Below, one piece after another: positions 34,597-37,456 of a stretch of DNA of 64,000 nucleotides (position 1 is the first letter of the stretch; each line of letters starts with the position of its first letter). The stretch spans positions 256,001 to 320,000 of the forward strand of contig CBDHDG010000005.1 in assembly GCA_965261595.1 (NCBI GenBank). Reading direction: 5' to 3'. The position numbers and the translations under genes were made by a program. The notes under the pieces are model-generated. The model had not been told where the DNA came from and made no database searches. It worked only from the letters and a program-made list of their open reading frames with translations. This stretch comes from a bacterium. GTDB lineage: Bacteria; UBA8248; JACPRG01; G963555815.

Positions 34597-34847
34597 AGTG
34601 CTTCCTTAAAATCCATTTATCTGTCATTTCGGTTAATCTGTTATTCCGAGCACAGCGAGGAATCGCGCCTTCCCCTCCCCGTTGGATATCCACCCCCCGC
34701 TCAGCCTTCGGATCACAGCGGACTTGAAACCGGCGTAGCGACTGTCTACCTCGTCAAGGGTGAATCGCTTTGGGCTGCCATGGTTGCCCGGTTCGGACCA
34801 TTGGACCGCCCCTGGGTTATTGGACACTCGGGTGAGGGTATTCGACC

Positions 34848-35765
34848 TCATGCGGCCTCCGCAACTTGAGCGAGTTTTTCCTGCCTTGCCTGGGCCGGCG
34901 TTCGGTAGCCGTAGCCCTCGAGAATCCAATGATGGTTGTACAGGTTCTTGAACTCAAGCAGCGCCCACCGCAGTTCCTCTACGGTGGCGAAAGAGCGCAC
35001 CCACAGGAGATTCTCCTTCAAGATGCGGATAAACCACTCACAGTAGCCATTTCCCTCGGGCGCCCGCACGAAGCTGGGCGAACTGGTCATGCCCAGGTAG
35101 GCGATCTCCCGCTGAAAGTCATCGGACAGATAGGCGGGGCCGTGGTCGTGACGAACTTTAAGCCCCTCGGCGACGTCCGCCTCCAAGCCGGCGAAGCGCT
35201 CGGCGACCCCCTGCCGGATCGGCTCCAGGGCCTCGAAGCGGTTGCCGCTCTTGGCCGCATGGATCCCCACGCAGTCCACCGAGCAGTGATCCACCGCCAC
35301 GAACACCGAGGCCACCCCCTCCTCGGTGGTCACCGTCGTCGTCATGTCCGTGCCCCACATTCGGTCGGGCCGCTCGGTGCGGATGGTCCCGTTGTGGGCC
35401 TTGGGACCTCGGGGTTTGCCCACCCGGTGGGGGGCCTGAAGCCCCGCCTCCCGCATCAGGCGACGCATCCGCTCCTTGCTGGTGCGGATGCCCGCGAAGC
35501 GCAGCCTCGCCCACACCTTGCGGTAGCCCTCGCCATGGAAGGGAGAGTCCTCCAGGACCTGCCGGATGTGGCCGAGGAGTTCCGCATCGGTGCACGGGCC
35601 CACAGGGCCGCGCTTATTGGGCGTGGGGCGTTCATGAACGGGGACCGCCTCTCGCCGCCGTTGCGCGTAGACCGTGGAGCGCGCCAAGCCCCAAAGGGCG
35701 CACACCCGCTTCAGGCCGTAGGCTCTGCCCGTGGAGGTGAAGCGGGCCTGACTCATCGCCTCCAC
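34848..35765 (-). CDS. IS3-family transposase OrfB (DDE integrase core)
   Basis: GYRKVWARL, WGTDMT, RHDHG, PEGNGYCE motifs. Confidence 0.9.
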   Translation of the reverse strand: MEAMSQARFTSTGRAYGLKRVCALWGLARSTVYAQRRREAVPVHERPTPNKRGPVGPCTDAELLGHIRQVLEDSPFHGEGYRKVWARLRFAGIRTSKERMRRLMREAGLQAPHRVGKPRGPKAHNGTIRTERPDRMWGTDMTTTVTTEEGVASVFVAVDHCSVDCVGIHAAKSGNRFEALEPIRQGVAERFAGLEADVAEGLKVRHDHGPAYLSDDFQREIAYLGMTSSPSFVRAPEGNGYCEWFIRILKENLLWVRSFATVEELRWALLEFKNLYNHHWILEGYGYRTPAQARQEKLAQVAEAA

Positions 35766-36139
35766 CTCCTGCCGGCTAAAGGGCGGCCGGCCTCCAGGCG
35801 GTCGATCTTCTCCCGCAGGACCTCGCCCTCCATCGTGAGTTCGCCCACCTTGGCCTTGAGCCGGGCGTTCTCCTCGTCCCGCTCATCCGCCGGGCGGGCT
35901 TTGAGCGCCGCCTCGCCCGCGCGAAGGAACGCCTCGCGCCAGGCGGAAAGCCGAGCCGCTGTCGTGCCCAACTCGCGGCAGAGCGTCTCCAGGCTCTCGC
36001 CCCGCAAAAGACGCAGGACCGCCTCCCGCTTGCGCTGGCAGGAGAACCGACCCCGCTCACTGCGATGCCCTGGGGCCTTGGCTCCGTTCGCCCTGCGGGC
36101 GCCCTCCGCCAAAGCCCCCTCTTGCTTTTGTTCGTTCAT
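35753..36139 (-). CDS. IS3-family transposase OrfA (HTH + coiled coil)
   Basis: [23 protein letters not shown]...[18 protein letters not shown]; overlaps OrfB. Confidence 0.85.
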
Positions 36140-37100
36140 CGCGACACCCCTTTCTCCATGAATCATGGATCAATCGAGTGTCCAACAAAACCCTAGAGCG
36201 GGGGACCATGGCATTGAGGATCAGCAGCAACTTGCGCATGCAGGCCACCAGGGCCACTTTTGGGGGCTTTCCCGCTGCACGGAGGTGTTGGTAGTGAGCG
36301 CGCACCACATCGTTTTTTCGCATCCCCACCAGCGCGGCCATGTACAGCGCGCGACGCACCGGCGCCCGCCCCCCCCGGATGTGACGCTCACCCCGCCGTG
36401 CGCCAGAGTCCCAGTTGATCGGCGCCACACCCACCAGCGTGGCCAACTCCCGCCGGCCCAGCCGACCCAATTCCGGCAGCTCGGCAATCAACGTGCACGA
36501 CACCACCGGCCCGATGCCCGGCGCCGAACGCAACAGCTCGTCCTTCGCCCGCCAAAGCGGGCTTTGGCGTATCGTGGCACTGAGTTCTTTTTCCAGCTTC
36601 GACAGTGCGTCCTTCAGCCAGCGGATGTGCGCCTGCACCCCCTTGCACAGGGCCGGGTCCTGGGTGCTCCGCAGCCGGTTCTGCTCGGCGGTGAGCATCT
36701 CCACCAACTGCCGCCGACGGGCCAAAAGCTCCGAAAGCCTTTGGCTGTCCGCATCGGGGACTTGACGGCCTCGGCAAAGCGGGCGATGACTTCCGCGTCC
36801 AACCGGTCGGTCTTCGCCAAGCGGCCTGTGGCGCGGGCAAAATCCCGCACCTGCCGGGGATTGACCACCGCCACCGGCAACCCCGCGGCGGCCAAGGTCG
36901 CCACCGCCTGCACCTTCTCCGTAGCCTCCAACACCACCACCGCCACGGACAAGGCCTGCAGGCGGGCTGTGAGCGCCGAAAGGCCCGCCTCGTCGTAGTC
37001 CACCGACCAAGCCTCCCCCTTGGGCCAGGTGTGCACGTCCAGGCGACGCCCCGAGACGTCAATGCCGACATAGACTTCCTGGGTGTTCATGAAATGGGTC

Positions 37101-37260
37101 TCCCTTCCTTGCGAATCCGGGCTCAAGATGGCCCTAGCGACTGTTCGGGATTCGACTTCCAAATGGATGGGGAGCCTCGCTACGAAACGGTCTCTAAGGA
37201 CCTGGGGCCGGTGCGGTCTCCCGTCCACGTTCTTCCCCTCACCCTCGGGGATAGACCTCC
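37101..37260 (-). ncRNA. IS110 bridge RNA (5' hairpin, target-binding loop, donor-binding loop)
   Basis: Guides ACCGGCCCC (37204-37212) and CGTAG (37180-37184) match the flanks; ACAGTCGCT (37136-37144) and GCAAG (37108-37112) match the element ends; enclosing stems present. Confidence 0.85.
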
Positions 37261-37456
37261 TCATTGTCATGCCCAAAAAAGGCCGCGACAAGGCTTTGTC
37301 CATCAATGCCAAGATTACAAGGGGCCGGTCTCCGTACCGGCCCGTCACACGCCCGCGTGGAGAACGGGGTGTTTCAGCCAGGCGACTCCCTTGCATCGGG
37401 CAATCTATTGAAAGGCAACCAGTTCACCGGCCCATCCGAATGAGGCGGAAAAAGAC

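Follow-up and report, generated by a model that had tools for sequence, protein, structure and literature searches.

The window considered here is a 64,000-nucleotide (nt) stretch, C5:256001-320000, of a 6.17-Mb bacterial genome (genome G000; 63% G+C, seven contigs), and the subject is an insertion sequence (IS) of the IS110 family that interrupts a repetitive extragenic palindrome (REP) of the host. The interval 34739-37321, between the two halves of the palindrome, consists of two nested mobile elements, both on the minus strand: an outer IS110-family element of 1,175 bp, with one copy of its core counted, and an IS3-family element of 1,404 bp that splits it. The preliminary description of this DNA had treated the interval as one element; its assignment to IS110 stood, but the picture of a single element gave way to an IS110 with a broken frame and an IS3 nested in it. 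The features, in order along the plus strand, are as follows.

34735..34738, plus strand: GTAG head of the interrupted REP; its AG (34737-34738) is one copy of the CT core in minus-strand reading, at the right-end/right-target junction
34739..34801, minus strand: IS110 right end, with the last 15 transposase codons beyond the IS3 break, the stop TGA (34754-34756) and a 15-nt noncoding end
34802..36205, minus strand: nested IS3-family element, 1,404 bp, with orfA (35756-36166) and orfB (34851-35765)
36206..37090, minus strand: main part of the IS110 transposase gene, with the start ATG at 37088-37090 and a frame break near 36757
37091..37319, minus strand: left noncoding end with the putative bridge RNA, 229 nt, from the alignment with 67 relatives
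37108..37118, minus strand: donor loop, 3' side, GGAUUCGCAAG (...GCAAG), with the right donor guide CAAG, complementary to the CTTG with which the left end begins
37135..37145, minus strand: donor loop, 5' side, AACAGUCGCUA; its left donor guide ACAGUCGCU is identical at 9 of 9 positions to the right end plus core
37180..37188, minus strand: target loop, 3' side, GUUUCGUAG; the right target guide CGUAG pairs with CTACG
37203..37213, minus strand: target loop, 5' side, CACCGGCCCCA; its left target guide ACCGGCCCC is identical to the REP stem strand followed by the first core base
37320..37321, minus strand: second copy of the CT core, where left target and left end meet, read directly from the sequence
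37322..37345, plus strand: remainder of the interrupted REP, a hairpin, GGGCCGGT-CTCCG-TACCGGCCC-GT

Both domains of an IS110 transposase are recognizable in the gene. DEDD_Tnp_IS110 (PF01548) covers residues 8 to 107 of the N-terminal piece (E value, 2.4e-15; 57.1 bits against a cutoff of 29), and the C-terminal Transposase_20 (PF02371) was found with an E value of 7.3e-18 (65.2 bits against a cutoff of 21.3). The conserved-serine D-S-G column, invariant in the alignment of relatives, reads WDSG in the window translation. The NCBIfam model NF033542 ("IS110 family RNA-guided transposase") scores the two gene pieces separately at 69.3 and 127.2 bits, its cutoff of 140 bits being one for the whole protein and the gene here being in pieces; together they cover profile positions 1-110 and 115-336 of 343. 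The frame break near 36757 lies in the DEDD domain, and the blastx frame switch falls at the same residue of the relatives. With the frame broken and the IS3 nested in it, this IS110 copy is dead, which makes it a dead member of the family and not a nonmember. At its ends the element lacks terminal inverted repeats and shows the same dinucleotide core at both junctions, AG on the plus strand at 34737-34738 and 37320-37321. The left end is 229 nt long, against 15 nt after the stop codon at the right end, where ACAGTCG (34739-34745) and the core form the left donor.

The nested IS3 element carries the Pfam domains HTH_Tnp_1, HTH_21, rve, and rve_3 and is flanked by a 4-bp duplication, CCAT (34798-34801 and 36206-36209). 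It inserted 15 codons before the IS110 stop, so that a single IS3 copy killed the element studied here. The genome holds 176 full-length copies of this IS3 at 99.0 to 100% identity, in addition to 21 partial matches, amounting to about 4% of the genome; the copy number and identity suggest a very recent burst.

The occupied state is not peculiar to the assembly. Contigs from three public DNA runs, belonging to three studies, carry it, and their sequence at the frame break is free of indels; all three runs bridge the left junction, and two of them bridge the right junction under a 31-letter rule, the third reaching 28 letters. Because contigs of independent runs carry both the insertion and the frame break, both are real and widespread in the population. 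A second full copy of this IS110 is absent from the genome, in which the other traces are a 71-bp fragment and a paralog about 70% identical, both on contig C7. A search of 60 related genomes for the same element gave a closest match of 63% identity, in one genome of the same class and cut by a contig end, and the closest transposases retrieved from 5.8 billion proteins reach at most 66% identity over the C-terminal piece (184 residues).

On the plus strand the left junction reads ...AACCGGCGT-AG|CGACTGTC (that is, ...CCGGCGT-AG|CGACTG...) and the right junction reads ...GATTACA-AG|GGGCCGGTCTCCGTACCGGCCCGT. Dropping 34739-37321 yields CCGGCGTAGGGGCCGGTCTCCGTACCGGCCCGT, a GTAG-headed palindrome, just as the preliminary description had stated when it proposed that removal of the element rejoins a REP. 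In the orientation of the element, the target is GAGACCGGCCC-CT-ACGCCGG and the joined ends read ..GACAGTCG-CT-TGTAATC. The DNA fold of the target strand has an energy of -9.8 kcal/mol, and the left target is the 3' arm of this hairpin.

The unoccupied state of the locus was found in a second genome of the same genus (G001; 95% complete), which has both flanks on one contig, in the same order, with the site empty. The left flank is 88% identical over 935 nt and 81% identical over 88 nt and the right flank is 88.75% identical over 1,280 nt (81 to 89% overall), and the flanks are separated by 239 nt, against 2,593 in the window. The empty site reads CCGGCGTAGGGGCCGGTCCCCGTACC, with the core AG present once; in context the junction is ...TTTTCCGGCGTAGGGGCCGGTCCCCGTACCCGCCCGTCCCACGCC..., and CCGGCGTAG precedes GGGCCGG as it does in the window. 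The REP at this site, GTAGGGGCCGGTCCCC, has one different loop base, and the 9 bases to the left and the first 9 bases to the right of the insertion point are identical to the flanks in the window. The comparison is with the syntenic site in a sister species and not with an allele of the strain itself, and G001 holds about 230 nt more than the window directly upstream of the REP. The preliminary description had proposed to look for the empty allele in reads or related genomes. An empty site was thus found in a related genome, and apart from the loop base it has the form that was foreseen, but an empty-allele joint was not found in read-run contigs: the joint of 34738 to 37322 is not listed in the contigs of the three DNA runs, and since contigs drop rare variants, its absence is not implied.

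The 71-bp fragment, at C7:578910-578980, is a right end of the window-type IS110, 97% identical and without the IS3, so that the uninterrupted version of the right end is preserved there. It adjoins ...AACTTTCCTTCGTAG / ...CCTTCGTAG (...TTCGTAG) and represents a second insertion at the same REP position that was later truncated, with loss of the opposite REP half. The expectation that other copies would likewise lie in REPs therefore held for the sole other trace of the element.

The interrupted palindrome belongs to a large repeat family. The window contains the motif GTAGGGGCSGG 4 times, where 0.13 occurrences would be expected, and 0 of 100 shuffles contain it that often. Genome-wide there are 268 GTAG-anchored palindromes with a perfect 7-bp stem, and five stems cover 167 of them (GGGCGGG, 48; GCCGGGC, 45; GGCGGGC, 39; GGGCCGG, 25; GGCGGCC, 10). 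The genome has at least four GTAG REP subfamilies. Two subtypes matter here, GTAGGGGCCGG (the GCCGG subtype, with 43 sites) and GTAGGGGCGGG (the GCGGG subtype, with 56 sites), the stems of which differ by a compensatory change from G/C to C/G. Vacant paralogs of the interrupted REP read (T)CGTAGGGGCCGGGCTCCGTACCGGCCCGTCACAC, and 5 of the 11 paralogous copies compared have, at a distance of a few tens of bases upstream of the GCCGG-type REP, a GCGGG-type REP in inverted orientation. Other REPs in the window are the following.

7224..7250, plus strand: GCGGG-type REP
19149-19175, plus strand, with an inverted copy ending at 19119: further GCGGG-type REPs
23174..23225, plus strand: vacant GCCGG-type REP

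The GCGGG-type REPs at 7224-7250 and 19149-19175 had been pointed out in the preliminary description, correctly also as to the compensatory nature of the stem variant. The vacant CGTGTAGGGGCCGG site that it placed at 23175-23188 exists, but one base away, at 23174-23187. A genome-wide count of the two subtypes had been proposed together with a map of the interrupted ones; the count came to the 43 and 56 sites given above, but the element is single-copy and dead, so there is no set of copies to map.

Five Y1_Tnp (PF01797) genes of the genome score above the Pfam cutoff and resemble the REP-associated tyrosine transposases (RAYTs). Three of the five have GTAG REPs within 700 nt, and two of these three are bracketed on both sides by inverted copies. 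Together with the GTAG head and the many copies of the palindrome, these flanking repeats bear out the earlier identification of the site as a REP. The three genes are flanked by different repeats, namely, GCCGGGC/GGCGGGC REPs at C7:1197022-1197575, GGGCGGG REPs at C7:693213-693816, and GGGCCGG plus GGGCGGG REPs at C4:384896-385361, which hints at one RAYT per REP subfamily.

The left end of the element was examined by comparison with 80 loci from many phyla (L036-L115), the transposases of which are 51 to 64% identical to the query protein (P0007). A usable stretch of 300 nt upstream was available at 67 of the 80 loci, the other 13 having no start motif or not enough upstream DNA, and these stretches align well from about -170 to -20 relative to the start codon. 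RNAalifold was applied to 51 of 61 distinct sequences; the remaining ten were set aside on visual inspection because of long insertions in the loops, long tails, or near-duplication. Of the 28 base pairs in the consensus fold, 20 show compensatory changes, which are particularly frequent in the 13-bp outer stem of the first module. The fold consists of two such modules, in each of which an internal loop separates an outer stem from an inner hairpin. The fold of the window sequence by itself is uninformative (z = -0.11), and the structure comes from the alignment alone. By this model the left end folds as a putative bridge RNA of the IS621 type. A scan of 34600-37500 with Rfam 15, at E values up to 1, gave no bridge-RNA family and three subthreshold chance matches. 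A candidate promoter spans the joined ends, with a -35-like TTGACG (34752-34757, overlapping the stop codon), 17 nt, and a -10-like TAATCT (37312-37317); in the integrated state the -35 position reads CCGGTA.

The loops of this predicted RNA match the sequences that they would have to read. The left target guide has 9 contiguous matches to the REP, extending to the first core base, and agrees at 7 of 7 noncore positions, a score reached by only 0.1% of permuted guide/flank pairs among the relatives. It matches the GCCGG subtype at 9 of 9 positions and the GCGGG subtype at 7 of 9, and the means over all sites of the two subtypes are 8.2 and 7.2 of 9. The preliminary description was therefore right that this guide, which contains CCGGCCCC, fits the GCCGG subtype better.

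Guides and flanks covary in the relatives. Their right guides match their own right flanks at a mean of 5.08 of 7 noncore positions, compared with 1.96 for permuted pairs (n = 50 distinct), of which 2.7% reach 5 or more. Their left guides match the 7 bases preceding the core at a mean of 4.63 of 7, compared with 3.16 (n = 52), and 12 of the 52 score at least 6, as do 0.9% of permuted pairs. The relatives share right ends of the form CAGTTG-CT and left ends of the form CT-TGTA, and the 3' side of the donor loop is GCAAG or ACAAG. A left-end start of CTTGC was tried and rejected, the search having failed at most loci; the ends start with CTTGTA, with a guide G facing the T. Across loci L036-L115 the left donor guide begins with a conserved ACAGTTG, followed by variable bases (CCU, CGC, AGC, AUA, and others) where the right ends read CAGTTG-CT. 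Donor guide positions facing the core are often noncomplementary in this subfamily, unlike the strong preference reported for IS621.

A further comparison is available within the genome itself. The C7 paralog (C7:423918-425090; L027), about 70% identical and with in-frame stops of its own, has UGACCU and GGGGCAG in loop 1, matching its own, different flanks, ...CCCTGAC-CT-GCCCCC.... Since different loops fit different flanks, the paralog serves as a covariation control in the same genome. It is inserted after the TGAC-CT of TGACCTGCCCCC, the terminal inverted repeat of another multicopy element of the IS3 family (27 to 31 copies of the motif). Two loci from elsewhere, L042 in a Chloroflexota genome and L074 in a Nitrospirota metagenome-assembled genome (MAG), have the same right guide, GUGGGGCAG, and similar left guides, and the TGACCTGCCCCC target thus seems to be shared across phyla.

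One relative resembles the window element in its target. Locus L070, from a Dehalococcoidia MAG (contig DASTBR010000183.1), has the left-guide loop AUACGCCCCA and the right guide GCCGCGUAG. It sits in ...GGGGCGGATGCAATACGCCC-CT-..., a hairpin of the GTAGGGGCG type, at the same position and with the same A for U at the core T. This looks like an independent case of GTAG-REP targeting, the GTAG side being deduced from the guide with the right flank not located. L070 was considered as the closest kin of the window element and rejected, since it ranks 56th of 67 by score to the window protein.

Several observations weigh against a bridge RNA aimed at this REP. Opposite the core T the guide has A instead of U, and the left-guide match lies 1 nt from the inner hairpin, one base nearer than in most relatives; only 4 of the 30 relatives that score at least 5 have this spacing, the others having 2 nt (21 relatives) or 3 nt (5 relatives). 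The right guide matches at only 3 of 7 noncore bases (5 contiguous with the core included), at the bottom of the range of the relatives. Among the 99 GTAGGGGC[CG]GG sites, 21 score 14 or more, at least equal to the occupied site (5 + 9 = 14), and all of them are vacant; one, at C6:613837, matches both guides at 17 of 18 positions. The preference for the site rests on n = 2, one full copy and one fragment. Finally, in RNA run X15 no contig falls on 36287-37285 except over a short conserved stretch, and the IS3 is covered, a result that is uninformative on transcription. Two of these points have counterparts in the other data. The left guides of L054, of L058, and of the donor loop of the C7 paralog have C or another base at the second core position, so that pairing with the core T seems to be dispensable in the subfamily, and the abundance of good targets and lack of further copies are consistent with death of the element shortly after its arrival. 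The claim that the bridge RNA was programmed against the host's repeat thus holds for the guides, with their 9 contiguous matches on the left, but with the reservations of the A at the core T and of a right guide with only 5 contiguous pairs.

With these points taken into account, we consider it very probable that a bridge-RNA-guided element of the IS110 group, with an IS621-like layout, once integrated into a REP of this host and that the copy is now a fixed fossil. Its left end is long and encodes a predicted bridge RNA with two loops, its right end is very short, the core is CT, and inverted repeats are lacking. Judging by the work on IS621, the element would have been excised as a circle, and the RNA would have been made from the promoter rebuilt on that circle, TTGACG and TAATCT being brought to a spacing of 17 nt across the joined ends. 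The donor loop would read the element's own joined ends, and the target loop would read the 3' arm of the REP hairpin (ACCGGCCC) with the core, as well as the GTAG head (CTAC in the orientation of the element) with one flanking base. The RNA would in this way bridge the circle junction and the REP, and recombination at the CT within CTAC would split the REP, leaving GTAG on one side and GGGCCGG... on the other. Presumably it was pairing, rather than the shape of the hairpin, that chose the site. The copy has since decayed, with the frame break in the DEDD domain and the insertion of the IS3 15 codons before the stop.

Other explanations of the locus deserve weighing. The palindrome halves directly adjoin the element, and IS110 members have no classical inverted repeats, which makes ends hard to call from one copy; the halves could on that account be the element's own termini, or have been made by the insertion, and not be a preexisting host repeat. 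However, the palindrome is found intact and unoccupied both at the syntenic G001 site and in dozens of copies elsewhere in the host genome, the relatives of many phyla share the ends CAGTYG-CT and CT-TGTAW in unrelated flanks, and the donor loop matches ACAGTCG-CT-TG and not the REP. The existence of the empty site refutes this explanation, to which we give practically no credence. It is also conceivable that the site was chosen mainly by DNA shape, a REP hairpin or cruciform, and that the RNA match is secondary or coincidental. The left target is after all the 3' arm of a stable hairpin (-9.8 kcal/mol), the right-guide match at the occupied site is weak, and for ISPpu10 a preprint describes a 5' stem-loop in the REP target that adds specificity beyond pairing. 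Yet a 9-nt contiguous left-guide match at a loop position that covaries with the flanks is not expected by chance, with 7 of 7 found in 0.1% of permuted pairs. A hairpin on the left-target side was also considered as a general trait of the subfamily and was rejected, since only 9 of 54 loci have the left target in a hairpin arm and the mean fold energy, -3.1 kcal/mol, is at the level of the control, -3.5 kcal/mol; the hairpin is therefore not a general requirement. Shape as the main determinant is accordingly very unlikely, although the two readings are not exclusive and the hairpin may help here.

The mismatch at the core T, the shifted register, and the weak right-guide match could mean instead that the element was transferred in already programmed for a similar GTAG repeat elsewhere, of an older host or an older REP family, and made a near-cognate, off-target hit here. 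Consistent with such an origin, the full 9-nt right guide GUUUCGUAG fits a different REP context (GTTTC-GTAG, at C6:613837) better, the 60 related genomes hold no close relative (63% at best) and the nearest proteins are at most 66% identical, and the unrelated L070 element targets GTAGGGGCG at the same position. The left guide, however, is perfect for the GCCGG subtype of this host, T-rich GTTT(C) spacers before GTAG are typical of the host's REP units, and two separate insertions occurred in the host genome. We regard a foreign program as unlikely and retain a bridge RNA suited to the host's own GCCGG-type REPs as the preferred reading.

The surroundings of the insertion add some context. 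The insertion site, the one REP for which an extragenic location was examined, lies between an alpha/beta-hydrolase-like open reading frame (ORF) that ends at 34481 and another ORF that ends at 37532 and has a terminator-like hairpin. TrpC is encoded nearby, and its nearest named relatives, at 76% identity, are labeled Candidatus Tectomicrobia and Nitrospinota MAGs, which offers a lead but does not classify the host. On the left, a stretch of about 100 nt (34496-34598) forms two GC-rich hairpins (GGGGGGCGC..GCGCCCCCC and AAGGGGCGGCTCCC..GGGAGCCGCCCCTT). Many repeats of this type, at 80 to 98% identity, are present in the host genome and in the same-genus genome, and the genome of another genus in the same family has more than 40. 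On the right lies part of a longer repeat unit.

37346..37440, plus strand: beginning (~95 nt) of a repeat unit of ~135 nt that lies outside the IS and occurs after several GCCGG-type REPs

The unit, CGTCACACGCCCGCG..GAACGGGGTGTTTCAGCC..GCATCGGGCAAT..ATTGAAAGGCAACC..CCATCCGA..TTCTCTTTGTGAGAAAT, is conserved on the 3' side of several GCCGG-type REPs and was also found at C3:216005-216117, C6:1041518-1041630, C7:1179842-1179955, C7:1185416-1185511, and C6:1227283-1227390. It is retained at the empty site of G001 and is overlapped by contigs from one RNA library, and Rfam has no match to it at E values up to 1. It may be a small RNA or a unit resembling a miniature inverted-repeat transposable element (MITE).

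Two further ideas can be put forward together, as a tentative proposal that we think possible though doubtful. One is that the bridge RNAs of IS110 elements in this host partition its repeats as landing pads and tell REP subfamilies apart by one compensatory stem pair. The window element would then be set for GCCGG only and the C7 paralog for the IS3 terminal repeat TGACCTGCCCCC, with the same guides in two other phyla. The other concerns a minority of the subfamily, including the window element and L070 on GTAGGGGCG, in which the left guide ends with the first core base and lies directly against the inner hairpin; these may use a distinct register for C-run targets.

Set against known systems, the repeats of the host are an ordinary REP/RAYT landscape with several subfamilies. 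The GTAG head, the GC-rich imperfect palindrome, the presence of several subfamilies per genome, the inverted REP pairs, and the Y1_Tnp genes bracketed by inverted REPs are common to REP/RAYT systems and to this genome. Nothing in the host is unusual in this respect, and the pairing of subfamilies with RAYTs is suggested by adjacency alone.

REP targeting by IS110 elements is likewise well documented. Insertion of the Escherichia coli element IS621 (Choi 2003; Durrant 2024; Hiraizumi 2024) specifically into REPs was shown in 2003 (Choi 2003, as cited in PMC11208160), and the bridge-RNA basis was reported in 2024, when 144 of 173 unique IS621 insertion sites were found to lie within REPs (Durrant 2024, PMC11208160). 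ISPa11, ISPpu9, ISPpu10, and ISRm19 were found to be REP specific in 2006, with all copies of each of the four elements in REPs (counts of 6 of 6, 7 of 7, 7 of 7, and 4 of 4); as reported there, every copy occupies one fixed REP position, and joining the flanks restores the REP (Tobes and Pareja 2006, PMC1525189). For ISPpu10, the 2026 preprint describes a target with a 5' stem-loop, one arm of which is complementary to the left target, as an extra determinant of specificity. The preliminary description had offered parallel targeting of a different REP family in a distant lineage as an inference, and on the evidence of these reports (PMC1525189, PMC11208160, and the ISPpu10 preprint) such parallels among IS110 members were already in print. 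Novelty is confined to the host lineage and to this particular REP, without any claim that the REP family or the element is missing from the published literature; IS110 REP targeting has been in print since 2003 to 2006 and its bridge-RNA basis since 2024. With the element a fossil and the principle published, no new question is opened. The case adds a documented IS110 bridge RNA aimed at a host REP in a sparsely sampled lineage far from the proteobacteria, and it includes an empty-site control and guide-flank covariation across about 50 relatives of many phyla. Natural guides that do not pair with the second core base may be of interest to engineers of bridge recombinases.

The closest parallels are with the elements just named. 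ISPpu10, ISPpu9, ISPa11, and ISRm19, as published, share with the window element the fixed REP position and the restoration of the REP on joining, and ISPpu10 shares the 5' stem-loop. Those elements, from Pseudomonas and Sinorhizobium, are multicopy and active, whereas the window holds a fossil with one fragment elsewhere; the REP sequences differ, and the host in the window is not a proteobacterium, judging by the relatives of TrpC. The window element and IS621 differ in REP family and in host lineage, and the former, at 1,175 bp, is dead. IS621 is about 1.3 kb long. The window element also has A as the left-guide base that faces the core T, a match displaced by one base, and a right guide with 5 contiguous pairs. 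A distant blastn comparison with 5,426 Escherichia coli genomes gave only a 73-nt match at 80.8%, in another IS110-family gene, frameshifted and at a type VI secretion locus.

By its published description, IS621 shares with the window element the DEDD and Transposase_20 domains, a left-end bridge RNA with two loops, the CT core, and a junction promoter. In its target loop the left guide equals the top strand of the left target and the right guide is complementary to the right target, the donor loop being built alike, and the wild-type target is printed as ATCAGGCCTAC (PMC11208160). There too the target is a REP, the CT core lies inside CTAC, the complement of GTAG, and the left target lies in the stem; the window counterpart is ACCGGCCC-CT-AC, with the split at an equal position and in equal orientation with respect to GTAG. 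In the window, in the printed IS621 target, and in L070 alike the core falls within the GTAG head, which fits a scheme in which the CT core comes from the conserved head and the left target from the stem.

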